DNA of 64,000 nt, taken from IMG/VR virus record IMGVR_UViG_3300046002_003930, positions 1-64,000 of that record; one strand, given 5' to 3'. The notes beneath the pieces are model-generated. The model did no database searches and had not been told where the DNA came from. It saw nothing but the letters and a program-made list of their open reading frames with translations. The DNA comes from a virus (Duplodnaviria; Heunggongvirae; Uroviricota; Caudoviricetes). Positions 20,664 through 37,633 of the stretch are shown one piece after another. A program made the translations under genes and the position numbers. How positions within the stretch are numbered: the stretch's first letter is position 1; each line of letters opens with the position of its first letter.

Positions 20664-20872
20664 AGAACATCGACAATTTTGTAAAGGTGCTGTATTGGCG
20701 TATCTTTATGGTACACGAAACGCATCCATAATTGCTGTGCGTCCTGAATTTAGACAGCCGTCATTGCTTAGTAATGAATCGTTAGGGTTAGAGCCTTATA
20801 GTAACCCAAAATAAAGCCCTTGACTTTTGCCGGTCAAGGGCCTATACTGTTTAAAGATTAGGAGAAAATCAA

Positions 20873-21718
20873 TTGAAACAACGCAGCAACCCACTTTCTT
20901 GGATTACAGTAGACGACGCAGAACTCTCGGTTGATAAGTTCCCGGATGGTTCGTTCCGATTTACTATCAGTAACATCAATACCGTCTATTCTAGCATTGT
21001 TGGGCCTAGATTTAATGTAACACTTAAAAGCACCTTGCCGGAAGCGCTACATGCCTGTTTCCAAGTGTGTAGTGCACTGCTTGATAGCTTTAATACTTGC
21101 TATATTGCTCTTACAGTTCAAACCTTCCCAGACCAACGTGCTGATCGCTCAGAAAAGCCCGGTATGGCTATTCCGGCAATCGCTACATGCACATTTCTGG
21201 CTGCTATGCCCGTAGATGAAATCGTTATTTTCGATATTCACAATAAGTCTGTTCTGGAAGCACTTAAAATTGGCTGCAAATATAACGAAATTAAAGTCCG
21301 CCATGTGGAGCCGCTTGATTGTTTAATTGAGGCTTTAAAGCTTGATGATCTTGACCCTGCAACATCAATCGACTATGTTGTAGCAGTTGATAAAGGTGCG
21401 GTTCATCGTGCTGAAACGGTTGCAGAGTACTATGGCGCTGAAGTCATTTACTGCGATAAAAAGCGTGTTGATGGTAAAATTATCGGGCACGAAATTGTAG
21501 CTCAACCAGACGGGCCTATGGCCGGAAAAAACATCTGGGTTGTGGATGACCTGTGCGACGGTGGTGCTACCTTTATTAGTGTTGCCAAGTTGTTGCGCGA
21601 ACATTACAACTTTCACGATCTAAATCTTTACGTAACTCATGGACTGTTCTCCAAAGGCAAGGAAGAACTGTTCCAACACTATACCACTATCCTTGCCCTT
21701 TTCGATTATGGAGCCTAA
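20873..21718 (+). CDS. ribose-phosphate pyrophosphokinase-like / phosphoribosyltransferase-domain protein
   Basis: Promoter-in-hairpin GCCCTTGACTTTTGCCGGTCAAGGGCCTATACT upstream; PRPP-binding motif VVDDLCDGGAT. Confidence 0.6.
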   Translation: MKQRSNPLSWITVDDAELSVDKFPDGSFRFTISNINTVYSSIVGPRFNVTLKSTLPEALHACFQVCSALLDSFNTCYIALTVQTFPDQRADRSEKPGMAIPAIATCTFLAAMPVDEIVIFDIHNKSVLEALKIGCKYNEIKVRHVEPLDCLIEALKLDDLDPATSIDYVVAVDKGAVHRAETVAEYYGAEVIYCDKKRVDGKIIGHEIVAQPDGPMAGKNIWVVDDLCDGGATFISVAKLLREHYNFHDLNLYVTHGLFSKGKEELFQHYTTILALFDYGA

Positions 21719-23216
21719 CTTGAACTATTCTGTCCCCGCTATTTTCGCTACCGATGCTTACAAACTGAGCCATTCGGAAATGTACCCTGAGGGTATGGAG
21801 CTGCTGTTCTCCACTTGGGTTCCTCGCTCGGACCGCCTTGCTAGGACGACTTCGCGTCAACTCGACGGCGATAACTCTGTCGTGTTCTTTGGCATCACGC
21901 AAACCATGAATAAGATGGAAAGCATCTTTGGTGAGTGGTTTGACCGCGACACTGAAGAAGTTGTGGATGAATACATCGACTTTATCAAGCTGTTCCTTAA
22001 AGTTACGCCAAATGCGCTGCAAGTTGAACGCATTCGTGACCTGCATGAACTTGGTTATCTGCCGATTAAAGTCTTGTATCTTCCGGAAGGCACAGTCACC
22101 AAAACCGGCGTCTGCCAAGCTGTAATTTTCAATACTCTGCCAGAGTTCGCGTGGGTTACTAACTATCTGGAAACTCTCTTCTCCACTCTGCAGTGGAATG
22201 CGCAAACCGTCGCGTCTATCGCACGGAACTACCGCAAGCTGTGTGACGAGTTTGCTGAACTCACTTGCGAAAACAACCTGCACGTTGACTGGCAGTGCCA
22301 CGACTTCTCTATGCGCGGTCTTTCCTCGCTAGAGACTTCGTCGACTGCTCAGCTGGGCCACCTGCTGTATTTCAACGGTACGGACACGCTGCCGACACTG
22401 TTCGAAGGTCAGAAGCTGTATGAAGATTTCGATATCGCCACCTTTGGCTCGGTACCAGCTTCGGAACACAGCGTTATGTGTGCGCACGGTGAAATGTCGG
22501 AAACGGATACTTTCCGTCACATCATGAATGCATTCCCCGTGGGCATTGCTTCTATCGTGTCTGATACGTGGGATTTCTGGAAAGTTCTGACGGTAACTCT
22601 GCCAGAACTCAAAGACGAAATCATGCAGCGCGATGGCAAGATTGTTATTCGTCCGGACAGTGGAGACCCGGTTGACATCATCTGCGGTGACGCAAATGCT
22701 GAGTGGGGCTCTCCTGCTTCGCAGGGCGCAATCCAACTTCTGTGGAATGTGTTTGGCGGCACTGTGAACGCCAAGGGCTACAAAGTTCTTGACCAACACA
22801 TTGGCCTGATCTATGGTGACTCGATCACTCTTGATCGTGCTAAGCGCATCTTTGAACGCCTTGCCGCGAATGGCTTTGCTTCGTCAAACGTTGTTCTTGG
22901 TGTTGGTTCGTTCACGTATCAATGCAACACGCGTGACACTTATGGCTTCGCCATGAAAGCCACTGGTGCCATTGTTAACGGTGAAGAACGCGCACTGTTC
23001 AAAGACCCGGTCACTGATGACGGCACTAAGACGTCCTTCAAGGGCTTCCTTAGCACTCGTTATGATGAAGTGCGCGACGAGTACTACACTGTTGATCGTC
23101 TGACTTTCGACGAAGCCGTGTTTGACCCGGAAAGCGCGTTCATTGAGCACGACTTCGAGTTTGTCAGCAATACTGCAAACTCATGGGAAGAGGTGCGCTG
23201 GCTTGCACGCCAGTAA
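21708..23216 (+). CDS. nadV: nicotinamide phosphoribosyltransferase (NadV/NAMPT-like)
   Basis: About 500 aa; IVIRPDSGDPVDII matches the NAMPT RPDSGDP signature; start overlaps the PRPP-synthetase stop. Confidence 0.6.
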   Translation: MEPNLNYSVPAIFATDAYKLSHSEMYPEGMELLFSTWVPRSDRLARTTSRQLDGDNSVVFFGITQTMNKMESIFGEWFDRDTEEVVDEYIDFIKLFLKVTPNALQVERIRDLHELGYLPIKVLYLPEGTVTKTGVCQAVIFNTLPEFAWVTNYLETLFSTLQWNAQTVASIARNYRKLCDEFAELTCENNLHVDWQCHDFSMRGLSSLETSSTAQLGHLLYFNGTDTLPTLFEGQKLYEDFDIATFGSVPASEHSVMCAHGEMSETDTFRHIMNAFPVGIASIVSDTWDFWKVLTVTLPELKDEIMQRDGKIVIRPDSGDPVDIICGDANAEWGSPASQGAIQLLWNVFGGTVNAKGYKVLDQHIGLIYGDSITLDRAKRIFERLAANGFASSNVVLGVGSFTYQCNTRDTYGFAMKATGAIVNGEERALFKDPVTDDGTKTSFKGFLSTRYDEVRDEYYTVDRLTFDEAVFDPESAFIEHDFEFVSNTANSWEEVRWLARQ

Positions 23217-23284
23217 GCTCTAAAATAGCACTTGACTTTGGTCTCTCCTTAGGTTATTATTAATAATCATCAAGGGAGAGACCA

Positions 23285-23473
23285 ATGTACATTTTTACGC
23301 AAACTTTCAAGTCTACAAAAGACGTTCGACATTTGGTTGTTGAGCTAAAAACCGACGAAGAGGCTCGCGCATATGCAGAGGCTCTTCTAGACTCTAGTGT
23401 TGATATTACTAGCGTGCGCGTGTTTAAAGAGCTGGCATTTGTCCGTAAAGTAGAAAGCAAGGTGTGGTCGTGA
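23285..23473 (+). CDS. hypothetical protein
   Basis: T5-type promoter at about 23228-23262, RBS GGGAGAG then ATG. Confidence 0.45.
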   Translation: MYIFTQTFKSTKDVRHLVVELKTDEEARAYAEALLDSSVDITSVRVFKELAFVRKVESKVWS

Positions 23474-23724
23474 AGTTGACCCAAGAACAACTCAATGAAC
23501 TCATTTATGCGCTGCAAGGCTCATGCTCGACTATTGCTGAGCAACTTGAGATGCGTTGGGAAATGAGTGAAGATGACCTAACTATGGAGGACTGTCTCGC
23601 AATTGATGACGCTATTTTCTGTTGCTCAGTGTGCAGCTGGTGGTGCCCGGTTAGTGAAGAAACTGCCACCGCTCAAGGAGAGTCCGACTTAGGCTGTTCC
23701 GACTGTTTTCCAGAAGAAGACTAG
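23464..23724 (+). CDS. Cys-rich small protein
   Basis: CCSVCSWWCPV...CSDCF cysteine cluster. Confidence 0.45.
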   Translation: MVVKLTQEQLNELIYALQGSCSTIAEQLEMRWEMSEDDLTMEDCLAIDDAIFCCSVCSWWCPVSEETATAQGESDLGCSDCFPEED

Positions 23725-24005
23725 TGGAGTTTATGAAAGCTAAACGCCCTCCTCCACCACAGACGGTGGAGGAGGTTTTGGCGTGGTGGGAAGACCGCGC
23801 GTTTGATATGCCAGATTGGTATTGGGAGCCACCAAATTGATATTTCTATTTTTCTTTTCACTATTTGCCGCTATTTGGAACTATTCTTTATGGGCGGCGT
23901 ATAGTCAGTCGAATGATTATTATTATAACCAACAGAAAAATGGCTGGTGGACTATATTCTACGCTTGTTTGATGTTGTATTGTGCTTTTAAATTGGATTT
24001 TTAAT

Positions 24006-24599
24006 ATGACTACCTCTTGGGTCGTAGCCGACCCACATTTTGGCCATCTAGGCGTGTGCAAATTTCTGCACCCCAATGGCACTGACCCCTTGCGACCTTG
24101 GGATACTCCCGAGGAAATGGACGAAGCTTTAGTTGAGAACTGGAACGAAGTTGTGCGTCCGGCTGACCGCGTTAACCTGCTTGGTGACGTGGTGATTAAC
24201 CGCCGCTGCCTAGTAACTCTGGGCAGGTTGAATGGGCGTATTCGTCTGGTTAAAGGCAACCACGACATTTTCAAGCTTGCTGATTACCTTCCGTATGTAG
24301 ACGACATTGCTGCTTATCATGTGACCAAAGGCCCACAGGGCGGCAAAGTTATCATGAGTCATATTCCAATTCATCCAGAGTCTCTGGGACGTTTTGGAGT
24401 AAATATTCATGGCCACCTTCATGCCCATGTTGTAACAAAAACAACACAGCGCAAGTCTGAACTGGAAGGTTGGACAGAAACAGTACCAGATCTACGGTAT
24501 GTTTGCGTCTCTGTAGAGCAGACAAACTGGAGACCAATCACGCTTGAAGAAGCAATGTCAAGAGCAGAGCCAACAGATGAGAGTGCATATTCTCACTAG
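24006..24599 (+). CDS. calcineurin-like metallophosphoesterase
   Basis: VVADPHFGH, GDVV and GNHD motifs; start at internal ATG 24006. Confidence 0.6.
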   Translation: MTTSWVVADPHFGHLGVCKFLHPNGTDPLRPWDTPEEMDEALVENWNEVVRPADRVNLLGDVVINRRCLVTLGRLNGRIRLVKGNHDIFKLADYLPYVDDIAAYHVTKGPQGGKVIMSHIPIHPESLGRFGVNIHGHLHAHVVTKTTQRKSELEGWTETVPDLRYVCVSVEQTNWRPITLEEAMSRAEPTDESAYSH

Positions 24600-24664
24600 T
24601 AGCTTTGAAAATAGTACTTGACATTTGAGTCGAAAGTTGCTATTATGTTTTATAAAGGATTATT

Positions 24665-24931
24665 ATGATTAATAAAGATACACGACTACACCCCTTCGAA
24701 GTTAGTTTTGCTGCAATGGTGAAGAAGGCCAGAGCGTCTGCACGAGAGCGTGTACTAAGACCGCGCGCTAAAGAAATCCCAGCGCATATTCTTCCACGAA
24801 TGGATGAAGAGCTTGGCTATGGGATGTACAACTATCGTCTCGATCAGTGGGTTAAGGAAGAATATGCGCAATATCATCGTATTTTCCGAACAGAAGCTCT
24901 AGCAGAGACTTGGTACCGAGGACTAATTTAA
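24665..24931 (+). CDS. hypothetical protein
   Basis: Promoter TACTTGACATTTGAGTCGAAAGTTGCTATTATG upstream. Confidence 0.45.
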   Translation: MINKDTRLHPFEVSFAAMVKKARASARERVLRPRAKEIPAHILPRMDEELGYGMYNYRLDQWVKEEYAQYHRIFRTEALAETWYRGLI

Positions 24932-24959
24932 GACGGAGATAAACCTCCAAAGGAGGCAC

Positions 24960-25298
24960 GTGACTTACACGCCTGATTTAACTAAACAAATTATTAGCGA
25001 CTACGAAGCTAATCCTACAAGAGAAAACGTAGATGTAATTGCAGACCGGATTGGAAAGCCTTCCCGGTCTGTTATTGCAAAACTAGCCGCCGCTGGTGTT
25101 TATAACACACCAGCTAAGACGACTAAAACGGGCGACCTTATTATTAAAAAGGAAGAGCTCGTAGCTGATATTGAGAAGTGGCTCAACATTGTAGCCCCTA
25201 GCCTCGCAAAAACTAACAAACTCGATCTTCGTGAACTTCATAGGGCAGTAGAATGCAAGACTGGAAATACGCACACAAAGGCTCTGACGAATACGTGA
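24960..25298 (+). CDS. small protein, paralog family member 3 (GTG start)
   Basis: Strong RBS AAAGGAGG then GTG; VIADRIGKPSRSVIAKLAAAGVY and KEELVADIEKWL modules shared with 1804, 4231, 47533 and 51651. Confidence 0.5.
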   Translation: MTYTPDLTKQIISDYEANPTRENVDVIADRIGKPSRSVIAKLAAAGVYNTPAKTTKTGDLIIKKEELVADIEKWLNIVAPSLAKTNKLDLRELHRAVECKTGNTHTKALTNT

Positions 25299-25433
25299 GC
25301 CTCGTAGGGCTAATTCGAAATATGTTTCGAGTTAAATTTGAAGAAGATATTCTGACAATCGCCACTAGGGATTCTGAAGTAAGAATCAAAACAAAAGATG
25401 GCTGGGCTATGCTTGGTCAAGAGGAAGAAGTAT

Positions 25434-25754
25434 ATGAAATCTAAAGAAAATACTTTAGCAATGATTCTTGCTGCCAGCATTATCGTAATAGGCGCTGTAG
25501 TAGGAATTGGTGCTATCATCTGGATGTCAGCAGTGACATTAACATGGCTATGGATGTGGTTTATAGTGCCTCTAGGCGTTATGCAGCTATCTTTGGCTCA
25601 CGCTTTTGGTATTTCAGGTATTGTTTACTACCTTACGTACCGCCCAATTACCCACACAGTAGATAAAGAACAAGCCGTTAAAGCTATGGTTCAAACGGCG
25701 CTTGTTCCATTCACTGCTCTTGGTCTTGGGTATATCTATCAACTATTTATGTAA
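25434..25754 (+). CDS. membrane protein
   Basis: RBS GAGGAAGAAG then ATG 25434; three hydrophobic helices. Confidence 0.45.
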   Translation: MKSKENTLAMILAASIIVIGAVVGIGAIIWMSAVTLTWLWMWFIVPLGVMQLSLAHAFGISGIVYYLTYRPITHTVDKEQAVKAMVQTALVPFTALGLGYIYQLFM

Positions 25755-25783
25755 ACAGCGGCTTCCGGGCCTTTAGGATAATA

Positions 25784-25993
25784 ATGACCATACTTGCGTT
25801 TAAACCGCGACCAAAACCAGCCGTAATTGAACTTCCACCAACCAATCATGTCCCGCCTAGCATAACTACAATGGTGGCTAAAATCACACAGTGGGCAGCT
25901 GATATGGGTGTAGATGTAGAAACTACAGACTTTAAATACGAAACCGCTACTATTATGACGGTTATGCAAGGAATGATACATAAAGTAAAATGA
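25784..25993 (+). CDS. hypothetical protein
   Basis: 69-aa ORF. Confidence 0.4.
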   Translation: MTILAFKPRPKPAVIELPPTNHVPPSITTMVAKITQWAADMGVDVETTDFKYETATIMTVMQGMIHKVK

Positions 25994-26355
25994 TTGAACT
26001 TTTTGAAAAAACCGCATCTGACGAATACAAACATTTCGATGCTTTTACCTTGCGGCTTGACGAATGCAACCCAAATATTGCCACATTGCTAGGAGCAGGC
26101 ATCGGCCTTTCCGGTGAAGTTGGTGAATTTAATGAAATTCTCAAGAAACACGTATTTCAAGGTAAGGACTTCGATGAAGTCCATGCAAAGAAAGAGCTTG
26201 GAGACATTCTCTGGTATTTTCTAGCAGCTTGTTATGCGCTAGATACGACTCCCGAAGAAATCTACACGATTGTCTCGGATAAACTCCACGCCAGGTATAG
26301 TACTGGCAAATTTACCATCGCCGAAAGCGAAAACAGAAAAGAAGACGACGTATGA
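25990..26355 (+). CDS. MazG-like nucleotide pyrophosphohydrolase
   Basis: GEVGEFNEILKKH...KKELGDILWYFLAACYAL, the EExxE/D-GD pattern of the MazG family. Confidence 0.55.
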   Translation: MIELFEKTASDEYKHFDAFTLRLDECNPNIATLLGAGIGLSGEVGEFNEILKKHVFQGKDFDEVHAKKELGDILWYFLAACYALDTTPEEIYTIVSDKLHARYSTGKFTIAESENRKEDDV

Positions 26356-26561
26356 GAGTAGAAGTTCGAAATGGCAATCTAGAGCGTGCCATGAAAGTGT
26401 TGAAGCGCAAGCTTGTTGATGACGGTATGTTCCGTGAACTCCAAGCACGTCAGGCCTATGAAAAGCCTAGCGATAAACGCAAACGTGAGCACACTAATGC
26501 AGTTCTAAGGCAGCGTAAAGCTGATAAAGAACGTACTGAACACATTCTACCCAACGTATAA
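26352..26561 (+). CDS. rpsU: 30S ribosomal protein S21 (bS21) homolog
   Basis: 69 aa; VEVRNGNLERAMKVLKRKLVDDGMFRELQARQAYEKPSDKRKRE aligns with the E. coli RpsU core (ALRRFKR...YEKPT.ERKR). Confidence 0.7.
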   Translation: MRVEVRNGNLERAMKVLKRKLVDDGMFRELQARQAYEKPSDKRKREHTNAVLRQRKADKERTEHILPNV

Positions 26562-26570
26562 GGAAAAACT

Positions 26571-26996
26571 ATGAATATTGCACTTGTTAAACACGACGGT
26601 ACGGCTCTTAATATGCCTGCTAAAAGCATCCAAGGTATTCTGCCTGTTGAACCAACCGAAGATGCGGCCGATCTAAACTCGGTTCTATTTTCCGGTTTCC
26701 GTGGCGGTGCCACTTTCTACCTTCAAGACTCTGCAAATGACGTCTTTGAGGCGATTAAGGCACAGTCAAAAGAAGTTGAGGGATGGGCACAGTTCTCTCA
26801 CATTATCGAAGGTCAGAACATCTATCTGAAAACTCCGCTGGTCGAAGGCTACGACGAAGTGAAGACCGCCGATGATATGTTTTATCGCGTTTGGGTCAAC
26901 AACGGAACCGGACTAGAGACTATGGAGACTTGTAAGCATACCCCAGAAAATCTAGAAGCATTGACTGCAGCTATTGCCGCGAAAGGTGTCGTTTAA
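26571..26996 (+). CDS. hypothetical protein
   Basis: RBS AAGGAAAAAC then ATG. Confidence 0.5.
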   Translation: MNIALVKHDGTALNMPAKSIQGILPVEPTEDAADLNSVLFSGFRGGATFYLQDSANDVFEAIKAQSKEVEGWAQFSHIIEGQNIYLKTPLVEGYDEVKTADDMFYRVWVNNGTGLETMETCKHTPENLEALTAAIAAKGVV

Positions 26997-27133
26997 TGTT
27001 CCATAAGCGAAAAGATAAGGGCTGTGAAGCTAAAATCATGGCTGTTGTAGGTGAGCGGGTTCTTATTGAATCCCGCTGGCCTAAAAATGGTCGGAATATC
27101 CTCTTCGTATCAAAAGATTATTTCCAGGAGCGT

Positions 27134-27338
27134 TATGGAATCGCCGCTTGACCCTAAGGTCGCCCATCAGATTAAGATGGCAGCAAAAGAAATGCTGCGA
27201 GCTCGACGCTATGAAACGGAGTATAATCCGATTTTGTATATTCCAGCAAATCTGAGCGCAAACCATCCAGATAGTGGTATGTCAATGGCAGACCACGAAA
27301 AGGAAAAAGAAGCAAGGAAAACCCAAAAAAGTTCTTGA
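27134..27338 (+). CDS. hypothetical protein
   Basis: RBS CAGGAGCG then ATG 27134; stop TGA lies inside the -35 TTGACT of the next promoter. Confidence 0.4.
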
Positions 27339-27363
27339 CTTTTTGGGCAGATCTTGCTATTAT
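27335..27363 (+). promoter_or_regulatory. T5-type promoter (TTGACT-17-TATTAT) driving the tmRNA locus
   Basis: AAAAAAGTTCTTGACTTTTTGGGCAGATCTTGCTATTATAAGAG. Confidence 0.65.
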
Positions 27364-27369
27364 AAGAGA

Positions 27370-27760
27370 TAGTCGTAGACGACTGATAAAGGCGTAAAAG
27401 ACGCGAGTTCGACTCTCGCCGCCTCCACCATAAGTCCATCCTAGAGCAGTTCGCGACCTTGCAGGGACAAGATAGCTCGAAAAGATGAAGTCCTGGCTCC
27501 TGCAAGAGTCGAAGCATATCTCCCTGTGGTAAGGGACGGATTCGTTTGGGGCGACGTTCGCTGGCATGGGCCGGTGTAGTGTAAGTATCTGGGTGGCTTT
27601 ATGATGGGGGCGACATGGCATTCGATTTTACGAGAAATAAACAGTAAGAGACTAGTGACTGGCAAAGTGCCATTTTAAATGCAAACGATAATGTTGCGTT
27701 TGAAGATTTCCGCGTAGCGGCTTAATCTTCTTGGGTCCGCGGGTACCTCGAAACAGAAAC
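27370..27760 (+). ncRNA. ssrA: circularly permuted (two-piece-type) tmRNA (ssrA). Acceptor piece about 27370-27430 ends in T-arm/acceptor/CCA; coding piece starts GGGGGCG at 27606; tag ORF 27681-27725 encodes ANDNVAFEDFRVAA-stop
   Basis: T-arm GCGAG-TTCGACT-CTCGC then CGCCTCC-A-CCA (27403-27430). Downstream GGGGGCGACAUGGCAUUCGAUUUUACG resembles the tmRNA 5' end GGGGCUG...GGAUUCGAC. P1 pairing GGGGGCG/CGCCUCC and P2 pairing UUUUACG(27626-32)/CGUAAAA(27393-99). Tag reading frame GCA AAC GAT AAT ... GTA GCG GCT TAA. Confidence 0.7.
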
Positions 27761-27783
27761 CCGTACTTAATTTTAGAGGAAAT

Positions 27784-27936
27784 ATGAAATACTCAATCGG
27801 TTACAGAAACGCCAAAGGGCACTTAGTTTGCGAACTTTTCCCTGACTGGCCCTCGACATTCAAGCGTCTTGAAGGGCTTGATCATTTAAGTAAGACGGTC
27901 TTCGAAATCGTCCAAGGAGAAGATGAACCTATTAGC
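27784..27936 (+). CDS. hypothetical small protein
   Basis: RBS AGAGGAAAT then ATG; 50 aa; stop overlaps start of the spanin gene. Confidence 0.4.
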
Positions 27937-28462
27937 TAAAGCAGCTGAATTTAGAACTCAACTTATTATCGGCGGCATAGCTTTAACAGCTGTTGCCGTC
28001 GCTTTTGCTGCGACCTATAATATAGCCTATAATAAAGGCTTGAATGTCTCTGAAGTAGAGATTGCAGAATATCAAGGCAAAGTTGAAAAACTCAGTAATA
28101 GGCTTAAAGAGGCTCAAGGTCGAGTTACAACGCGTATTCAAACGCAGTATCTTGATCGTGTTGTAGAACGCGAACGCATTGTTTATCGTAATCGTGATGT
28201 AGTTGTTACTCAAGTCCCTGAGCAGTATATTTTGTCTCAAGGATGGGTAGACGCTCACGATGCTAGTGTACGTAATACTGTATTAGAACCAGAAGTTGCT
28301 GCGAACGCATTCCCATCTGGATACACAGATCGTGATGTTCTAGAAGTAATTACTCGCAATTATGGTCAAGTTTGCCTTGCAAATGCTGATCAACTAACCG
28401 CCCTGCAATCATGGGTTACAGAACAGAGGAAAGTAAATGAAGAAGCTATTGCTAATCGCTAG
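27923..28462 (+). CDS. i-spanin (Rz-like; N-terminal TM plus coiled coil)
   Basis: N-terminal TM IIGGIALTAVAVAFAA followed by coiled-coil-like periplasmic region; o-spanin gene overlaps its 3' end. Confidence 0.55.
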   Translation: MNLLAKAAEFRTQLIIGGIALTAVAVAFAATYNIAYNKGLNVSEVEIAEYQGKVEKLSNRLKEAQGRVTTRIQTQYLDRVVERERIVYRNRDVVVTQVPEQYILSQGWVDAHDASVRNTVLEPEVAANAFPSGYTDRDVLEVITRNYGQVCLANADQLTALQSWVTEQRKVNEEAIANR

Positions 28463-28583
28463 TTTGTTACTTGTATCGGCGTGCTGCCCTACAGTAATGA
28501 CTCCAGAACCACAGACTTGGCCACCGGCACCAGCCGAACTAATGCGCCCCGCGCAAACTCTAACTCCGGTGCAGCCTCAATGA
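28437..28583 (+). CDS. o-spanin (Rz1-like proline-rich lipoprotein), overlapping +1 frame
   Basis: MKKLLLIASLLLVSACC lipobox then Pro-rich PTVMTPEPQTWPPAPAELMRP; absent from ORF track (under 60 aa). Confidence 0.55.
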   Translation: MKKLLLIASLLLVSACCPTVMTPEPQTWPPAPAELMRPAQTLTPVQPQ

Positions 28584-28945
28584 GTCCTGAAACAGAATTT
28601 AAACACCTGGATAAACTTACACCACGATATGTGCGTTATGCTGGAGTTACGGAAGAAAGCGTGTATAATGCTCCAGACATTTCTGCTACACTAGCAGAAC
28701 GCGGTGGACGCTATGGTAAATTTATTCACCATTCTCAAATCTCACAGGGCATGCAAGATGTAATGCGCGATGCTCCTAATTGGGACAAACTTGATGTGGA
28801 TATGCGTCAAGCCCTTACAACTATTGTTGATAAGATCGCTCGTATTTTAAACGGCGACCCCTATTACGATGACTCCTGGCACGATATCAGTGGCTATGCT
28901 ACTTTGGTTGAACGCCGGTTGTTAGAAGAAAAAGCCCCGCAATAA
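28580..28945 (+). CDS. hypothetical protein
   Basis: Start taken at MSPETEFKHL after the o-spanin stop; ORF-track start 28481 overlaps the spanins. Confidence 0.45.
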   Translation: MSPETEFKHLDKLTPRYVRYAGVTEESVYNAPDISATLAERGGRYGKFIHHSQISQGMQDVMRDAPNWDKLDVDMRQALTTIVDKIARILNGDPYYDDSWHDISGYATLVERRLLEEKAPQ

Positions 28946-28958
28946 CGCGGGGCTTTTA
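28931..28958 (+). terminator. rho-independent terminator
   Basis: AAAGCCCCGC-AATAA-CGCGGGGCTTTT. Confidence 0.65.
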
Positions 28959-29020
28959 CGTCACCGATACTCTCTCTAGGTGGCACAGGACATTACAGTC
29001 CGAATCTCAGAGGAGAAAAC

Positions 29021-29485
29021 ATGAAACGAATATTAATTGGGTTAATCGCCCTAAGTTTAAGTAGTACCACCGCGCTTGCTGCGCCACGAATCGTTGAAGC
29101 AGTAAGCACGCCGCAGTACATACAGAATATAAGTGCTAATGTTAGGGAGACCGTGTGTCTCTCACTAAATGTATACCACGAGGCACGTGGCTCTACGCGA
29201 CAAGACCAGATTGGCGTCGCATGGGTTACTAAAAATCGAGCGGCGCGTACCGGCCGTTCATATTGCCGTACTATTTGGGAGCCAGGACAATTTTCTTGGA
29301 CCCCACGATCGGCTTCCAGCTTAATGCCTCGCGAAATGGCGGCGTGGCATAGAGCGGTTCACATCTCTAGTCAAGTAATGGCAGGCGAGATCGCGGACCC
29401 CACTGGAGGCGCACGAAACTTCAGAGCATCACGTATGGGTGGCGGTAGAGGATACCGCGTTATTGGAGCCCACGCGTACTGGTAA
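29021..29485 (+). CDS. secreted cell-wall hydrolase (SleB/Hydrolase_2 family), candidate endolysin
   Basis: Signal peptide MKRILIGLIALSLSSTTALAA; LNVYHEARGSTRQDQIGVAWVTKNRAA matches the SleB-type hydrolase motif. Confidence 0.55.
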   Translation: MKRILIGLIALSLSSTTALAAPRIVEAVSTPQYIQNISANVRETVCLSLNVYHEARGSTRQDQIGVAWVTKNRAARTGRSYCRTIWEPGQFSWTPRSASSLMPREMAAWHRAVHISSQVMAGEIADPTGGARNFRASRMGGGRGYRVIGAHAYW

Positions 29486-29527
29486 AACAATTCTTGACTA
29501 ATGAGCTTAGAAAGGCTAATATAGGAT

Positions 29528-29782
29528 ATGAAATTTTGTATAGACTGTTCTAATTACGGCATCGGTAATAAATGTGATAGGTTGAAAAAAGCCGCACCAA
29601 GTTTAGTTACTGGTAAAGTTGAGTATAAAGGTAAAAGTTTATCCTGCGAGGATGAACGTGATAGTTGGGGTGGAGGATGCGGACCTAATGCCCAATTTTT
29701 TAGGTCCAAACGCTTACTCAAGCCTCCAACTGGCGGCAGTAGTGTTTCTAAGCCTAAAAGATCGGACCCAGTCCGTATATGA
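29528..29782 (+). CDS. hypothetical Cys-containing protein
   Basis: 84-aa ORF. Confidence 0.4.
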   Translation: MKFCIDCSNYGIGNKCDRLKKAAPSLVTGKVEYKGKSLSCEDERDSWGGGCGPNAQFFRSKRLLKPPTGGSSVSKPKRSDPVRI

Positions 29783-30333
29783 ACCTTTTTATTCTAGACT
29801 ATGACCTTGACAAGAACGCAGAATATCATATCGACAAACACGTAACCAAAATGCAGCTTGAAGCTGCTCAAATGCTGGCTACAACTGTGTGGGTTGATAA
29901 ACTACTAGGCTATGTACCTAGGAAGCTGGATAGTGAGGAACTAAGTGTAATTAAAGCCGAAATGGCCGCACTCCCTGCTATTGATGAGAGACAGTTTCTT
30001 AGGTACAAGGCCGCACATATTAACCATCCATGTACTATCTGGATGCGAGAAAGTTATGACAATTTTGAGTGGGCGCAGATTTACGTCAACTCTCTTAACG
30101 AAGAAGCACAGTACCGCGGGTATAAACCACACGCGAGTTGCGCCGAAGTCAACAAAATGCCACTCCCAACTCGTTTGCCGCGTAAAGGCCTGACCGAGTT
30201 TGCGCAGGCAATGCCAGAAGATTACAAACAGAAAGACCCAGTAGAAGCCTATAGGCTATACTATCAAATGGATAAATCAGAAATTGCATCTTGGAAGATT
30301 CGTGGCGTGCCAGAGTGGTGGGAAAATGTTTAA
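29779..30333 (+). CDS. hypothetical protein
   Basis: 184-aa ORF. Confidence 0.5.
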   Translation: MNLFILDYDLDKNAEYHIDKHVTKMQLEAAQMLATTVWVDKLLGYVPRKLDSEELSVIKAEMAALPAIDERQFLRYKAAHINHPCTIWMRESYDNFEWAQIYVNSLNEEAQYRGYKPHASCAEVNKMPLPTRLPRKGLTEFAQAMPEDYKQKDPVEAYRLYYQMDKSEIASWKIRGVPEWWENV

Positions 30334-30466
30334 TCCTTGGAAATTAGAATTAGAGAATAGGCAGCTTAGAGAAGCTTTAGTCTATTATATGAACAGAAAC
30401 GAATCATTAGAAAGGCGTATTTCAGCAATGAATAAGCGCGTAAAGGAGGCACTTCGTGCACGCTAA
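30326..30466 (+). CDS. hypothetical small coiled-coil protein
   Basis: Internal start MFNPWKLELEN of ORF 30284-30466. Confidence 0.3.
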   Translation: MFNPWKLELENRQLREALVYYMNRNESLERRISAMNKRVKEALRAR

Positions 30467-31118
30467 AGTAGTTGCTATATCGTACCCGCTCAATATTGAG
30501 GGAGTTACAACCGCAGAAGAGTTTATTGCTTACGCCGCCAGGGTGAGCAATCCTACCGGACAAGTAAACAATCTAACAGCAGATAAACTGATTCGTTATT
30601 TGATTGTTAACAAACATTGGTCGCCGCTAGAAATGGTTTCGGTGACTATGGAGATTGAAACGACACGCGATATTGGGCGGCAGATTTTGCGCCACGCGTC
30701 GTTCCGATTCCAAGAGTTTAGTCAGCGCTATGCCTCTGTCGAGGTAATTGACGAGAATTATCCAGTGCTTAGACAAGCACGTATTCAAGATACTAAAAAT
30801 CGCCAGAATAGCTTTGAAACTCGTGATGAGTTTGTCATAAGTGACTGGGAGCGTATGCAAGTTAATTTAGCAGATCATGCTATGGAAATGTACAAGCAAG
30901 CTTTAGCGATGGGAATTGCTAAAGAACAAGCTCGTGCAGTTCTACCTGAAGGCTTAACACCTACACGAATGTACATGGCTGGAACGCTGCGAAGCTGGAT
31001 TCACTATTGTGATCTGCGATGCTCAAATGGCACACAAGCAGAGCACATGGAAGTTGCACATGAAGTACGCAAGCAGCTAGAACAATACTTCCCTAACGTG
31101 GTTAAAGCATGTACGTGA
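30456..31118 (+). CDS. thyX: flavin-dependent thymidylate synthase ThyX
   Basis: EEFIAYAARVSNP N-terminal region and LRHASFRFQEFSQRY (ThyX RHR...S motif region); 220 aa. Confidence 0.6.
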   Translation: MHAKVVAISYPLNIEGVTTAEEFIAYAARVSNPTGQVNNLTADKLIRYLIVNKHWSPLEMVSVTMEIETTRDIGRQILRHASFRFQEFSQRYASVEVIDENYPVLRQARIQDTKNRQNSFETRDEFVISDWERMQVNLADHAMEMYKQALAMGIAKEQARAVLPEGLTPTRMYMAGTLRSWIHYCDLRCSNGTQAEHMEVAHEVRKQLEQYFPNVVKACT

Positions 31119-31396
31119 TTCATAAGTTTAAAGTCCCAAAAATTGGAGAGCCTTTTACTCTAGAGAACGTAGATAAAGTTGTACGTTTCGGTATACAAGG
31201 TTCGGAGTATTTTGTATGGGGCGTAGTCTATAAAAATTCCGTCCCTGGAAAATCCCGTCGCTACGTAGTGATTGGTACAGGTCAGGAGTATGATTACAAC
31301 TGGGAGCATCAGTATACAATCATTACACATAGCGGACTTGTATGGCATCTTTTAAAGGAACGTAAAGTTTCGGAACATTTGTTCCCCCTCTTTTAA
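31109..31396 (+). CDS. hypothetical protein
   Basis: 95-aa ORF. Confidence 0.45.
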   Translation: MYVIHKFKVPKIGEPFTLENVDKVVRFGIQGSEYFVWGVVYKNSVPGKSRRYVVIGTGQEYDYNWEHQYTIITHSGLVWHLLKERKVSEHLFPLF

Positions 31397-31458
31397 AAAT
31401 AATTCTTGACTTTTATCCTGAAACTGTTTAGAATGTATATTCAAACATGGAGATATAA

Positions 31459-32142
31459 GTGGCACTTGCTAAGCGAGTCAAAGTCAAAGTTGGCGAAAAG
31501 CTAACAAACGATAATATTGAGCGAGTTATTAAACTCCTTAATCAGCCGAAGCCAATTACGAAAAAAGAAGCCTGTGAGGTTCTCAATATTTCGTACAATA
31601 CTGGGCGTCTGGCCACTATTATCGAAAACTATCAAGCCCGTCAAGAGGCTGATTCAAAGCGTAGGGCTGCCAATAGAGGTAAGCCTGCATCGCCTGAAGA
31701 GATCAAAAGCGTGATCAATGGTTATCTCACTGGAGATACTGTTTCCGATCTTGCTAATGAACTATACAGGTCAACAACGTTCGTACGGAACATTATTGAA
31801 ACTGTGGGAGTTCCACAGCGCGGCGTAGGTGAGGATTACTTCAATTTCTCGCCCCTACCAGAACAATGTATTTCTGATTCTTTTGAACTAAACGAGATTG
31901 CTTGGTCCGCAAGGCACCAAGGCCCTTGTATTATTGATAAAGCTTTAGGAAAAACCAAAGACGGTCTAGCGAATCTATATCGTGTTTACGTTATCGAACC
32001 TTTCGAAGCCCCGGATAAGCTCTACGTTAGATCGTGGGGAACTCCTGGGCATTATGACACTCAACCAGCATTTGAGCTGGGTAGACTGGAGCACCTGCGC
32101 GAGTATGGTGTGAACGTAGAAAGGAATTTTAATGCCACTTAA
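31459..32142 (+). CDS. hypothetical protein
   Basis: Promoter TTCTTGACTTTTATCCTGAAACTGTTTAGAATG upstream; 227 aa. Confidence 0.5.
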   Translation: MALAKRVKVKVGEKLTNDNIERVIKLLNQPKPITKKEACEVLNISYNTGRLATIIENYQARQEADSKRRAANRGKPASPEEIKSVINGYLTGDTVSDLANELYRSTTFVRNIIETVGVPQRGVGEDYFNFSPLPEQCISDSFELNEIAWSARHQGPCIIDKALGKTKDGLANLYRVYVIEPFEAPDKLYVRSWGTPGHYDTQPAFELGRLEHLREYGVNVERNFNAT

Positions 32143-32503
32143 GCACAAGCACGTCATTGTAAAAGCAGACGTAAACAATCCCCCTTTTGAAACAGGCCCG
32201 GTCGAAGAATGGCTAAGACAGCTAATCTCCGACTTGGGCATGAATATTCTTAGAGGCCCGTACGCAGATTATTGCGAACTGGAAGATAACGAAGGGATGA
32301 CAGCAATGTGCATTCTTAGCACCTCACACTGTGTTCTGCACACGTGGGATAAATGCGAACAGCCGTTTATTCAGTTTGATTTGTATACGTGCTCCGAACT
32401 AGACCTTAGCCTAATCTGGAAAGCCTTGGAGTTCTTCGACGCTTTCAACATTGAGTATAAGTTTCTTGATCGCGAACATGGGTTAGTAGAAATTACTTCT
32501 TGA
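32132..32503 (+). CDS. hypothetical protein
   Basis: 123-aa ORF; stop inside the next promoter -35. Confidence 0.45.
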   Translation: MPLKHKHVIVKADVNNPPFETGPVEEWLRQLISDLGMNILRGPYADYCELEDNEGMTAMCILSTSHCVLHTWDKCEQPFIQFDLYTCSELDLSLIWKALEFFDAFNIEYKFLDREHGLVEITS

Positions 32504-32595
32504 CTTTGTAGCCTATCCGGGCTATAATGTTTAAATAGTGAGACGAGCGTGTACCGCCTTGCGAGAAGATCGCTCGTCTCACTTACAAGTTTTAT

Positions 32596-32670
32596 GCCCA
32601 AATAGCTCAGCGGAAGAGCGCCTCCTTTACACGGAGGATGTCGGGGGTTCGATCCCCTCTTTGGGTACCA
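32596..32670 (+). tRNA. tRNA-Val (anticodon TAC), CCA encoded
   Basis: Acceptor GCCCAAA/TTTGGGT, D-arm GCTCAGCGGAAGAGC, anticodon loop TTTACAC, T-arm GGGGG-TTCGATC-CCCTC; preceded by promoter 32500-32530 and a 12-bp hairpin. Confidence 0.75.
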
Positions 32671-32674
32671 TTTT

Positions 32675-32749
32675 AGTCCTGTAGCTCAACGGAAGAGCGC
32701 CACATTGACATTGTGGAGGTCGCCGGTTCGACACCTGCCAGGACTACCA
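32675..32749 (+). tRNA. tRNA-Val (anticodon GAC)
   Basis: Acceptor AGTCCTG/CAGGACT, anticodon stem CCACA/TGTGG loop TTGACAT, CCA encoded. Confidence 0.65.
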
Positions 32750-32750
32750 T

Positions 32751-32824
32751 GCTTCCTTAGCTAAGTGGTATAGCAGGCGACTGATAATCGCCAGTCACAA
32801 GTTCGATTCTTGTAGGAAGTACCA
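32751..32824 (+). tRNA. tRNA-Ile (anticodon GAT)
   Basis: Acceptor GCTTCCT/AGGAAGT, anticodon stem GGCGA/TCGCC loop CTGATAA, T-arm ACAAG-TTCGATT-CTTGT. Confidence 0.75.
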
Positions 32825-32961
32825 ATAATTCGCCCGTAGTGCATGCAACTACCGGCTAAGAACACGGATGACCTCTTCGGCAGACGAGGGGTAGTGCAAG
32901 TGGGCGGTCGCCCCGCACTTCTATTTCGGGGTAAAAGTCCTCATAGTCTGTCGACAATTTT

Positions 32962-33046
32962 TGCAGGATAGCCTAATGGTAAGGCAACGGTTTTTGGTGC
33001 CGTCAGCGAAAGCTAACTCTAGGTTCGAGTCCTAGTCCTGCATCCA
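32962..33046 (+). tRNA. tRNA with long variable arm, anticodon loop TTTTGGT (TTG, Gln-like but class-II shape)
   Basis: Acceptor TGCAGGA/TCCTGCA, T-arm CTAGG-TTCGAGT-CCTAG, CCA encoded; identity uncertain. Confidence 0.5.
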
Positions 33047-33047
33047 C

Positions 33048-33135
33048 GGAAGGTAGCGCTCAGGTGAGCAAACTGGTCTTGAAAACCAGGCCAAGGTGAT
33101 GAGTCTTGAGGTTTCGATTACTTTACCTTCCTCCA
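33048..33135 (+). tRNA. tRNA-Ser (anticodon TGA), class II
   Basis: Acceptor GGAAGGT/ACCTTCC, anticodon stem CTGGT/ACCAG loop CTTGAAA, long variable arm, CCA encoded. Confidence 0.65.
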
Positions 33136-33139
33136 TTTC

Positions 33140-33211
33140 CGTTAGTGCGCTGGGACGCAGCTGAGGCTCATATCTTCGGCGTGGGTGGTTCAATTCCACC
33201 ACTAACGACCA
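33140..33211 (+). tRNA. tRNA-Met or Ile2 (anticodon CAT)
   Basis: Acceptor CGTTAGT/ACTAACG, loop CTCATAT, T-arm GGTGG-TTCAATT-CCACC, CCA encoded. Confidence 0.6.
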
Positions 33212-33275
33212 TCTTAAAAAGTTCTTGACTTTTTGCCTCAAACATCGTATTCTATACTTATAGAAGGAGATTAAA

Positions 33276-33719
33276 ATGCAAAAAGGCCAAATGATTGGTA
33301 AAATGATTGTTCTTGCTACGAACGCCCACGCGGGGCAGTTCGACAAAGGCGGTCGTCCCTATATTCTACACCCTCTGTCGGTAATGCACATTCTGAACTC
33401 CGATGACGAAGAGTTGCAGTGCATGGCAGTTGGGCACGACATTCTAGAAGACACTGATACTACTATCGAGCAGCTTGTTGAAGCTGGCATGACAAAGCGT
33501 GTCATCGAAGGTATTCTGGCAGTCACTAAAATGCCGGGCGAATCTAAAGACACATACAAAGCTAAGGTTATGGCAAGTCAAGACGCGATGCGCGTCAAAA
33601 AGGCCGATCTTAAGCACAACAGCGACTTTAGTCGTCTGAAGGGTGTGAAAGAAAAAGACTTCGCTAGAATGGCCGCCTATATGCTGTTCTATCAAGAGAT
33701 TGAAGATCGCTTAAATTAA
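33276..33719 (+). CDS. HD-domain (p)ppGpp hydrolase (SpoT/Mesh1-like small alarmone hydrolase)
   Basis: Promoter 33225-33253; NAHAGQFDKGGRPYILHP and AVGHDILEDT match the Rel/SpoT HD hydrolase motifs. Confidence 0.6.
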   Translation: MQKGQMIGKMIVLATNAHAGQFDKGGRPYILHPLSVMHILNSDDEELQCMAVGHDILEDTDTTIEQLVEAGMTKRVIEGILAVTKMPGESKDTYKAKVMASQDAMRVKKADLKHNSDFSRLKGVKEKDFARMAAYMLFYQEIEDRLN

Positions 33720-33757
33720 TCCTTGACTTTTATCTCATTTCAGAGTATTATATAAAA

Positions 33758-33958
33758 ATGAAAGATTCTCTGGAAAGACTGTATCAAGACCGAGACGAGG
33801 CAGAACAACTTGTGTTCGATCTCGAAGAAGAAATCCGTAACCACGAAGAAGAGTCCGATGAATGGTGCTCTCTCTTCCATGAGTTGACGGAAGCAGAAAA
33901 CAACGTAAGCTACATTCAGGCATGGATTACCAGCCATGAAGGTGGCTACGAAGAATAA
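33758..33958 (+). CDS. hypothetical acidic protein
   Basis: Promoter CCTTGACTTTTATCTCATTTCAGAGTATTATATAAAA upstream. Confidence 0.45.
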   Translation: MKDSLERLYQDRDEAEQLVFDLEEEIRNHEEESDEWCSLFHELTEAENNVSYIQAWITSHEGGYEE

Positions 33959-33959
33959 T

Positions 33960-34036
33960 ACGCCACTAGCACAATTGGTAGTTGCGGGGGACTCTTAATC
34001 CCTAGGTTCCGAGTTCGACCCTCGGGTGGCGTACCA
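33960..34036 (+). tRNA. tRNA-Lys (anticodon CTT)
   Basis: Acceptor ACGCCAC/GTGGCGT, anticodon stem GGGGA/TCCCT loop CTCTTAA, T-arm CCGAG-TTCGACC-CTCGG, CCA encoded. Confidence 0.65.
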
Positions 34037-34038
34037 TT

Positions 34039-34656
34039 ATGATTGGCAATTTATATTTAATATCTAACTCTATAAATAATAAAGTTTACGTAGGTAAAAC
34101 TTACGAAGCTTTAGACAAACGATTTTCAGAGCACAAGAGAGAAAGTAAAAAACAGTTAACTAGACCCTTATACAAAGCTATGAATAAGCATGGTGCTGAT
34201 AATTTTAATATAGAATTAATAGGTACATTTATTCAGGGCGAATTAGAAGAATATGAGCAGGTCGCTATTGCGGAGTTTGATTCTTTTACTAACGGTTATA
34301 ATGCTACACTGGGTGGTGATGGAAAACGTTATCTAACTATTACAGATGCAGAAATTATAAATACTTATACTGTATTGAAAAACGCAGATGCTACTGCTAA
34401 GAAGTTAAAGATTAGTGAAGATTCGGTATTTAAGGTTTTAAAAGCCAATAATATTAAATCTCTATTTACTAATCCAGGAATATCTGTATTCTTTGTGGAA
34501 GAAAACACACGATTTGATAGAATATCAGATTGTGCTAGATATTTAATAGAAAATAACTATACTAATATAAGTTCAATCCCATCATTAGTTTATTCGATTA
34601 AACGGGTTATGGATAAACAAAGAAAAGCATACAAAAAGCTTCATTTTACCTATTAA
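34039..34656 (+). CDS. GIY-YIG homing endonuclease
   Basis: N-terminal NLYLISNS...KVYVGKT (GIY...YIG) followed by RFSEHK; inserted between two tRNA genes. Confidence 0.75.
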   Translation: MIGNLYLISNSINNKVYVGKTYEALDKRFSEHKRESKKQLTRPLYKAMNKHGADNFNIELIGTFIQGELEEYEQVAIAEFDSFTNGYNATLGGDGKRYLTITDAEIINTYTVLKNADATAKKLKISEDSVFKVLKANNIKSLFTNPGISVFFVEENTRFDRISDCARYLIENNYTNISSIPSLVYSIKRVMDKQRKAYKKLHFTY

Positions 34657-34665
34657 ATACATTAT

Positions 34666-34750
34666 CGACGCGTTGGACAATTGGTGGTCCAGTGGGCTTT
34701 TAATCCACCTCCGTAAGGACTTGTCGGTTCGAACCCGACCGCGTTGACCA
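34666..34750 (+). tRNA. tRNA-Lys (anticodon TTT) with unusually long variable region
   Basis: Acceptor CGACGCG/CGCGTTG, D-arm GGAC-AATTGGTG-GTCC, loop CTTTTAA, T-arm GTCGG-TTCGAAC-CCGAC, CCA encoded. Confidence 0.6.
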
Positions 34751-34791
34751 AACTAACGTGCCTAAATTAACATTAACAGCAGAAAAGCAAA

Positions 34792-35361: not shown

Positions 35362-35510
35362 CTGAGAGCGGGCCTAACGAACCCGCTCCAAGTGTTCTCC
35401 TCGGAGGCACAGCAGATACCCTAGATAAAAATCGTATTAGATCAACTGGACCCAGCTTCTCGTCGTGGGGTGGGTATTTAGGTGACCGTTCGATTTATCG
35501 CATCAAAGGT

Positions 35511-35801
35511 ATGCTATATCGTTCAGGCGAAGTACAGCGTCTTTTCAAAGATAAGTCTAGTGGAACTATTATTCTGCTAAAACGCGAAAAGGGGAATGCG
35601 CATGATGCTAATGCTATTGCGGTCTACTCAGCCCTAACCCCATCCGGGACTAAGACTTATGAGTGGACTAAAGTCGGCTATGTTGATAAAGAAATTGCCA
35701 GAGAAGAGTTCTATGGATTACCTCTAGATACGGTTCTTGAGTGTACAAAGTACGGCCAAGATACTTTCCAATTGAGTGGAAAAACTAGAGAGTACAAATA
35801 A
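35511..35801 (+). CDS. HIRAN-domain-like protein
   Basis: NAHDANAIAVY...KVGYVDKEIA resembles the HIRAN motif (NpyDpnAI.V...iGYv). Confidence 0.4.
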   Translation: MLYRSGEVQRLFKDKSSGTIILLKREKGNAHDANAIAVYSALTPSGTKTYEWTKVGYVDKEIAREEFYGLPLDTVLECTKYGQDTFQLSGKTREYK

Positions 35802-35847
35802 TATTGATGCTGTTAGGCGCATTTTATAAAGAAAGAAGGTGACTATT

Positions 35848-37025: not shown

Positions 37026-37046
37026 GTTAAGTAAATTATTAATCAT

Positions 37047-37632: not shown

Positions 37633-37633
37633 T

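Follow-up and report, generated by a model that had tools for sequence, protein, structure and literature searches.

In this study, we performed a detailed analysis of a 64,000-nt stretch of viral DNA (positions 1 to 64,000 of the Caudoviricetes record IMGVR_UViG_3300046002_003930 of IMG/VR; hereafter the window) and found that it carries a real, intact and selectively maintained gene for a transfer-messenger RNA (tmRNA), circularly permuted and of the alphaproteobacterial (alpha) type, in a clade of distantly T5-like phages. A tmRNA rescues ribosomes that have stalled and marks their incomplete proteins for destruction. The sequence and its comparison with relatives directly show the identity of the gene, the permuted order of its parts, every helix of the tRNA-like domain, a tag frame, a match to the promoter consensus, and conservation with covariation. 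On the sequence evidence, we put the probability that this is a functional phage-encoded ssrA gene, circularly permuted and of the alphaproteobacterial type, at roughly 85%.

Identification of the permuted tmRNA gene

Run blind on the whole window, ARAGORN reported one tmRNA, flagged as permuted (tmRNA*), at 27338-27816 with the tag ANDNVAFEDFRVAA. Two Rfam families, judged at the curated gathering thresholds of their covariance models, matched the same region over their full lengths. RF04321 (tmRNA_permuted) aligned to 27371-27725 with 86.8 bits against a cut-off of 47 (E 3e-15, model positions 1-213), and RF01849 (alpha_tmRNA) aligned to 27331-27767 with 69.3 bits against a cut-off of 50 (E 8e-17, model positions 1-355). 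A permuted two-piece tmRNA with this tag had been proposed in an earlier, sequence-only reading, which named a tmRNA finder or covariance models as one way to check it. ARAGORN and both Rfam families agreed with the proposal, at scores above the cut-offs rather than below noise, as did the covariation of the T stem and of helix P2 described below; the coordinates and sequences given in that reading all proved correct when positions 27200-27900 were read again.

The order of the parts is permuted, as the CCA end (27428-27430) lies upstream both of the first nucleotide of the acceptor 5' strand, G1 (27606), and of the tag (27681); the next coding sequence begins with an ATG at 27784. No plus-strand open reading frame (ORF) of at least 30 aa was found inside the gene, and the sole listed one (27274-27372) overlaps just the first 3 nt of the predicted transcript. 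An ordinary ORF is ruled out for the tag, since its frame lacks a start codon and is interrupted upstream by a stop at 27645. Minus-strand ORFs spanning the gene (149, 102 and 74 aa) were considered as a coding alternative and rejected, because they are not conserved in L004, a relative with a 91% identical gene, where their extents differ.

Conservation and covariation in related phages

Two related uncultivated phages carry the gene. The first (L004, IMGVR_UViG_3300046002_004218) has a spanin-like gene 91% identical to that of the window and, at the syntenic position, a permuted tmRNA with the tag ANDNFIADDFALAA; the two tmRNA genes are 91% identical over 480 nt. Between them the T stem changes from GCGAG/CTCGC to CGGTG/CACCG, so that four of its five pairs differ on both sides with pairing kept, and P2 of L004 shows compensatory change as well. 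The second, more distant one (L014/L034, records IMGVR_UViG_3300008113_002510 and 3300032092_000229) has a tmRNA with the tag ANDNNAYEGLALAA at the same genomic position. The proteins flanking the L014 gene are 41-69% identical to those of the window, and S21, an endonuclease-V-like ORF, ThyX and a D5-like ORF are shared in order. In L014, P2 shows compensatory change from CGUAAAA/UUUUACG to GCGGAAA/UUUUCGU, an A-U pair of the T stem has become G-C, and the 3' pseudoknot is compensated as well. Both relatives belong to the same clade as the window, share with it the flanking S21, spanin-like ORF, endonuclease-V-like ORF and ThyX, and have the same tmRNA architecture. The tags of the window, L004 and L014 all comprise 14 codons and keep the ANDN start and the (V/L)AA end, with a diverged middle in L004; conservation of the tag frame in related phages, on which the sequence-only reading had staked its proposal, is thus borne out in L004 and L014.

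The tRNA-like domain was further compared across a wider set of viruses. A scan of IMG/VR with the pattern AAGAC-N5-TTCGANT-N5-CGCCTCCACCA yielded 91 stretches, and of the 52 tmRNAs that ARAGORN called in 93 viral loci plus the window, 28 were permuted, with the window included. From these, the tRNA-like domains of 19 distinct viral permuted tmRNAs were aligned over 71 columns without gaps. The results showed that 97.0% of the cells in P2, the T stem and the acceptor stem P1 formed standard pairs, against 46-58% when the 3' partner was slid by 1-3 columns; 10 pairs were changed on both sides, and the covariation score was 0.444 against 0.06-0.11 after sliding. None of 500 shuffles reached the observed fraction of paired cells or the covariation score, and 1-2 of 500 reached the counts of pairs and pair types. 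The T stem was 100% paired with four of five pairs covarying, and P2 was 91.7% paired with six of seven pairs covarying. In addition, an IMG/VR search with the upstream 141-aa neighbour found no relatives, and two metagenome scans with family-specific patterns gave no match, in a collection evidently without even the L004 contig.

Taken together, the gene is under purifying selection across phages whose proteins are 41-69% identical. Its retention despite such divergence speaks for a benefit of added trans-translation capacity to lytic phages and against an accident of capture.

The 3' tails differ sharply after the tag stop: positions 27726-27783 of the window hold an alpha-type ACCUCGAAACAGAAACCCG pseudoknot, whereas L004 has a tail of the ACCUUAUUAACCAAC type at 5800-5861, which also occurs in three other loci (L002, L017 and L041). 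This swap between phages that are 91% identical looks like a cassette exchange between tmRNA alleles.

Promoter and structure of the two pieces

All features of the gene lie on the plus strand. It is preceded by a sigma-70-type promoter (27335..27363) with the -35 element TTGACT (27335-27340), a 17-nt spacer, an extended -10 TG (27355-27356) and the -10 element TATTAT (27358-27363). This promoter matches 10 of 12 consensus positions, possesses the TG and is identical in L004; a transcript start at about 27370 is predicted from it. About ten near-consensus plus-strand promoters of the form TTGACT-N17-TAT(T/A)AT were observed in the window, at 20820, 23232, 24618, 27335, 31406, 32500, 33723, 36012, 37144 and 38665. 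Several members of this family (20820-38693) stand just 5' of ORFs or of the first tRNA, and their recurrence suggests many short transcription units that would depend on the host RNA polymerase.

The acceptor piece, that is the 3' half of the tRNA-like domain, covers about 61 nt (27370..27430), is supported by ARAGORN and by the RF04321 and RF01849 alignments, and has a 5' end predicted from the promoter. It opens with a hairpin AGUCG-UAGA-CGACU (27371-27384) and continues with the P2 5' strand CGUAAAA (27393-27399), GAC (27400-27402), a T-arm GCGAG/UUCGACU/CUCGC with a 5-bp stem and a 7-nt loop (27403-27419), the acceptor 3' strand CGCCUCC (27420-27426), the discriminator A (27427) and an encoded CCA (27428-27430). 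The coding piece is put at about 160 nt (27606..27767), its 3' boundary being placed provisionally at the end of the alpha_tmRNA match (27767). It begins with the acceptor 5' strand GGGGGCG (27606-27612), followed by the D-loop analogue ACAUGGCAUUCGA (27613-27625) and the P2 3' strand UUUUACG (27626-27632), which forms 7 bp with its partner in the acceptor piece. P1 (GGGGGCG/CGCCUCC) likewise has 7 bp, the third of them a G-U pair (G3-U70), which together with the A discriminator and CCA makes up the alanine identity elements. Downstream, a linker includes GACUA (27650-27654), which is complementary to UAGUC at 27370-27374, and a 5-bp hairpin UGGCA-AAG-UGCCA occupies 27660-27672.

The tag frame (27681..27725), called by ARAGORN and aligned by RF04321 through its UAA, consists of the resume codon GCA at 27681, 14 codons encoding ANDNVAFEDFRVAA and the stop TAA (27723-27725). 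U and A stand at -5 and -4 relative to the resume codon, which specifies Ala, and the tag ends with a hydrophobic residue and Ala-Ala before the stop.

The tag is followed by an H-type pseudoknot of the alpha type (27733..27764), equivalent to the last 37 positions of RF01849. Its stem S2 pairs GGGU (27733-27736) with ACCU (27745-27748), its stem S1 pairs (G)CGGGU (27739-27744) with ACCCG(U) (27759-27764), and its conserved A-rich loop CGAAACAGAA lies at 27749-27758. The pseudoknot was tested in 12 distinct viral sequences anchored on AACAGAA. An S1 helix of 5-7 bp formed in the same register (i+j = 53 or 54) and was the longest possible in 11 of the 12, the window tying with one alternative register. 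The S1 sequence itself differs in each of the 12 (for example GAGGGU/ACCCUC, GGGUUGU/ACAACCC and GGCCAGU/ACUGGCC), and inspection of S2 revealed compensation among GGGU/ACCU, GAGU/ACUU and GGGC/GCCU. Judged by its sequence, the window gene is a trimmed two-piece tmRNA with a short P2, a hairpin in the place of the pseudoknot PK1 and one 3' pseudoknot. As a near-minimal two-piece form that occurs in nature, it could help to define the real requirements of the ribosome and of SmpB, the partner protein.

Intervening segment

The two pieces are separated by 175 nt (27431..27605) that adopt a predicted multibranched fold and are predicted to be excised, as expected from knowledge of two-piece tmRNAs. 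When the window and L004 were folded, the ends of the spacer paired (about 27429-27447 with 27585-27603), so that the CCA is brought beside G1; a short leader UGAU (27602-27605) is left 5' of G1, with the first two nucleotides taking part in the closing helix as predicted. All 56 pairs of the consensus fold are kept in both phages despite about 25 substitutions, with nine one-sided changes and one double change, and the fold Z-scores were -1.6 for the window and -3.2 for L004. The same juxtaposition of CCA and G1 is achieved in L014 by a simple 53-nt hairpin in place of the 175 nt. We read the spacer as a probable scaffold for processing, the pairing of its ends being an indirect hint that the precursor is cut into two RNAs. 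Spacer lengths in viral permuted tmRNAs run from 11 to 193 nt, without homology between different families, and that of the window is at the long end. No Rfam family, whether of riboswitches or of other RNAs, matched the spacer even at E<=1.

A candidate partial duplicate of the 5' end, GGGGCGAC at 27548 in the spacer, was rejected, since it is unable to form P1 and the similarity is lower in L004. The surrounding segment at 27548-27572, GGGGCGACGUUCGCUGGCAUGG, loosely echoes the true 5' end GGGGGCGACAUGGCAUUCGA, which is probably chance or a decayed duplication.

Phage genome and gene neighbourhood

All long ORFs of the window are on the plus strand. Its replication genes encode a family-A DNA polymerase with 3'-5' exonuclease, an NAD-dependent ligase, a DnaB-like helicase, a primase and a D5-like protein, and further genes encode ThyX-like, MazG-like and NAMPT-like proteins, an endolysin, a spanin-like protein and ribosomal protein S21. 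Neither structural genes nor terminal repeats were found within the 64 kb. The best matches of the polymerase (PolA) are to Demerecviridae, at 43-45% identity; the label "T5-like" given in the sequence-only reading accordingly holds in a distant sense only. In comparisons with GenBank phages, blastn of the whole tmRNA gene gave no match, and megablast of 20 kb around it gave tRNA-sized matches only.

The S21 gene (rpsU-like; 26352..26561, plus strand; phrog_21469, E 1.8e-12) lies about 0.8 kb 5' of the tmRNA promoter. S21 homologues are also found no more than about 1.4 kb from the tmRNA in L004 (4273-4464, same strand), L014 (242-433, minus strand) and L034 (opposite strand); in L014, S21 adjoins a dUTPase-like ORF. 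It had been suggested that rpsU and the tmRNA form a small module acting on translation. What speaks for such a module is solely that their proximity is retained in the relatives, with S21 on the opposite strand in L014, and common descent would yield such proximity without functional coupling.

About 5 kb downstream of the tmRNA, 29 tRNA genes (32596-47030, all on the plus strand) are interspersed with small ORFs. The array contains duplicated isoacceptors, namely two Val, two Lys, three Met-type CAT, three Leu and two Arg(tct). A GOLLD RNA (RF02032) was also observed in the array at 43998-44448 on the plus strand, with 171.8 bits against a cut-off of 150, and it embeds a tRNA-Leu(tag) at 44061-44137. 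In the locus L002, a GOLLD RNA (3077-3542, minus strand, 174.8 bits) embeds a tRNA-Ile(tat) and adjoins a permuted tmRNA and 22 tRNAs. GOLLD RNA, tmRNA and tRNA arrays therefore co-occur in at least two unrelated uncultivated phages. Elsewhere in the window, a NAMPT-like ORF (NAPRTase family, E 1.3e-42) directly follows a 281-aa ORF with a phosphoribosyltransferase domain (20873-23216); from their sequences, the two may constitute a phage NAD-salvage pair. Additionally, a 491-aa ORF with DUF2828, DUF7788 and VWA domains lies in the middle of the tRNA array (38966-40441).

With regard to the host, the best matches of the endonuclease-V-like neighbour, at 36-40% identity, are to a Roseobacter phage and a Caulobacter phage, closely followed by Rhizobium phages. 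These matches and the fit to the alpha-type model are only hints at the host. The 20-nt 5' end of the tRNA-like domain was further scanned against 185,579 bacterial species representatives. There were 26 matches, of which 25 were chance matches without a tmRNA and one was a 592-nt contig with a viral-type tag (JAURFE010000054.1). This contig, binned in a Vicinamibacterales metagenome-assembled genome (MAG), carries a permuted tmRNA with the tag ANDNNAYEGLALAA found in L014 and L034, and is probably a phage fragment mis-binned into the bacterial MAG. As all matches are due to chance or of viral type, no host can be deduced from the scan.

Proposed mechanism and alternative explanations

By analogy with known two-piece tmRNAs, we infer the processing sites, the charging, the use of host SmpB and what becomes of tagged proteins as follows; a possible benefit to the phage is then proposed. 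Host RNA polymerase would transcribe a single precursor of about 400 nt from the strong sigma-70-type promoter. The precursor would fold by pairing CGCCUCC (27420-27426) with GGGGGCG (27606-27612) and CGUAAAA (27393-27399) with UUUUACG (27626-27632). RNase P would then cleave 5' of G27606, trimming of the 3' end would halt at the encoded CCA (27430), and the structured 175-nt spacer would be discarded, leaving the acceptor piece of about 61 nt and the coding piece of about 160 nt joined by P1 and P2. Host AlaRS would charge the RNA through G3-U70 and the A discriminator (A73), and host SmpB and EF-Tu would deliver it to ribosomes stalled on broken mRNAs. Translation would resume at GCA (27681), (A)ANDNVAFEDFRVAA would be added, synthesis would terminate at UAA, and the product would pass to ClpXP-type proteolysis. 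The phage may thereby gain additional ribosome rescue and recycling of amino acids while the nucleic acids of the host are destroyed.

Several points weigh against a functional tmRNA of this kind. First, a canonical PK1 between P2 and the tag was not found on inspection of the window, L004 and L014, where there is just the 5-bp hairpin with no interleaved second stem, and the alpha model has two extended P2 helices (5 and 7 bp) of which both strands are deleted here. Second, no intrinsic terminator was found downstream of the gene, and the covariation of P1 is uninformative, because the search pattern fixed its columns. Third, a tblastn search with an approximate E. coli SmpB query found no SmpB gene in the 64-kb window (the best match, E 0.07, was on the non-coding strand), so that function must rely on the SmpB of the host. 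Lastly, the benefit to the phage is speculative.

Phage tRNAs can counter tRNA-cleaving defences, and a tentative alternative is that the phage tmRNA serves chiefly in counter-defence, rescuing ribosomes stalled by abortive-infection nucleases that cut mRNAs or tRNAs, together with the 29-tRNA array and perhaps S21. This possibility, which we regard as somewhat unlikely, would be in keeping with the position of the tmRNA upstream of the array, with the permuted tmRNA of L002 directly beside 22 tRNAs and a GOLLD RNA, and with the ssrA gene of Sphingobium phage Lacusarx, located between a 24-tRNA array and genes annotated as tadA and rtcB. However, no sequence feature separates counter-defence from general ribosome rescue, and the co-location with tRNAs may merely reflect a shared region for small-RNA genes. 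A more far-reaching version, in which the tmRNA, S21, the 29-tRNA array and the GOLLD RNA would form a coordinated, horizontally assembled system of translation takeover or counter-defence, with the tmRNA rescuing ribosomes stalled by abortive-infection RNases and the 175-nt spacer acting as a third stable RNA with a function of its own, appears unlikely.

The phage RNA might also act as a competitor or decoy that titrates host SmpB or displaces host tmRNA, thereby blocking or redirecting trans-translation in the host, which we consider quite improbable. A precedent is provided by the RNA of mycobacteriophage DS6A, which consists of the tRNA-like domain only and was reported as a tmRNA inhibitor (PMC4131195, PMC11915505), and the authors of the Lacusarx study proposed "counteracting host tmRNA-related tagging" (PMC5648845). 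The 20-nt 5' end moreover has no counterpart among the bacterial representatives scanned, apart from the 592-nt contig that is probably viral. On the other hand, the tag frame is intact, and its length and its ANDN and (V/L)AA ends are kept in three diverged phages. Such a conserved tag argues against a pure decoy, which would not need one.

Many temperate elements integrate into ssrA and carry its fragments, and the gene could in principle be a neutral passenger without a role for the phage, either a recently captured copy of a host ssrA or what is left of an attachment site in ssrA. Indeed, no complete tmRNA was called in 42 of 94 scanned sequences, nearly all of which are viral stretches with the 3' tmRNA motif; locus ends truncate some of the 42, and some may be ssrA fragments. 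In the window, by contrast, the gene has both of its halves in full as well as a complete promoter and tag, no integrase was found nearby, and no close bacterial source was found among the species representatives. The position is also retained in phages at 41-69% protein identity, with the helices kept by compensatory changes, which makes a passenger very improbable. Finally, a chance resemblance of a tRNA-like hairpin beside an unrelated short frame, for which nothing speaks beyond the general false-positive rate of tmRNA finders, has practically no probability and is already refuted by the agreement of two independent methods, Rfam scores 19-40 bits above the curated cut-offs and the covariation in relatives.

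Comparison with known tmRNAs

Catalogues of phage tmRNAs go back to at least 2014 (PMC4131195), and the tmRNA database holds 79 bacteriophage sequences (PMC11915505). In a survey of 18,146 phage genomes, 402 had a tmRNA, representing 133 unique structures, 53 of them two-piece (Buchholz et al., 2022; PMC9004378). Two-piece tmRNAs are known from phiCbK-like Caulobacter phages, Lacusarx and the roseophages DSS3P8 and MD18 (PMC9004378 Table S1; PMC5648845), and also from the Pelagibacter phages HTVC008M and Mosig, Synechococcus myophages and the Methylophilales phage Melnitz, the last being a case of an alpha-type ssrA in a phage of a non-alpha host (PMC9004378). A tmRNA in a T5-like phage, and a permuted one even more so, had been described as unusual in the sequence-only reading. 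This overstates the rarity of such genes in phages, given the 53 two-piece forms among 133 phage structures (PMC9004378) and the similar scores of the Lacusarx gene. The annotated ssrA of Lacusarx (KY629563, 74819-75212), adjoining its 24-tRNA array, was called permuted by ARAGORN with the tag ANDNDVVTAEVRLAA and scored 90.7 bits with RF04321 and 79.5 bits with RF01849. The PolA of Lacusarx shows marginal similarity to that of the window and is essentially unrelated, which indicates that genes of this kind are present in phage lineages independent of each other.

The permuted tmRNAs of Lacusarx and other cultured phages thus resemble that of the window in gene form, in Rfam families and in the large tRNA arrays nearby, but they belong to an unrelated phage lineage, and no whole-gene blastn similarity links the window to GenBank phages. 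A glutamine riboswitch is present in Melnitz and Mosig, whereas Rfam found none in the spacer of the window. The one-piece tmRNAs of the mycobacteriophage Bxz1 group and Bacillus phage G are likewise phage-borne and derived from ssrA (PMC4131195) but have the unpermuted order; the DS6A RNA shares this derivation (PMC4131195) and has no tag frame.

Among bacterial genes, Caulobacter crescentus ssrA and RF01849 share with the window the T-arm/CCA half in first position, the 7-bp acceptor stem with G3-U70 and the P2 helix. The promoter-like 5' end of the alpha model and its 3' pseudoknot with the ACCU-GNAACAGAA motif are shared as well. The Caulobacter tag AANDNFAEEFAVAA, as used in the literature, has the pattern ANDN...F..VAA in common with the window tag, in agreement with the resemblance to alphaproteobacterial two-piece tags noted in the sequence-only reading. 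The window gene differs from RF01849 in being phage-borne, in missing about 45 model positions after the tag, in the deletion of the extended P2 helices, in the absence of a recognised canonical PK1 and in a spacer of 175 nt against a few tens of nucleotides in the consensus. Furthermore, its 5' tRNA-like-domain sequence ACAUGGCAUUCGA resembles the consensus of permuted tmRNAs in general more than it does that of the alpha type, AAAUAGGAUCGA.

In a literature that was not systematically surveyed on this point, we came across no tmRNA reported from a T5-like (Demerecviridae-like) phage, and the window adds a clean, well-supported example of a phage ssrA in distant relatives of T5. It is no new category, as earlier publications already describe two-piece tmRNAs in phages, along with their alpha-type ancestry and their association with tRNA arrays. 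The points of note that remain for the window gene are its trimmed architecture, its long conserved spacer, the swap of its 3' tail and its neighbourhood of S21, 29 tRNAs and a GOLLD RNA.

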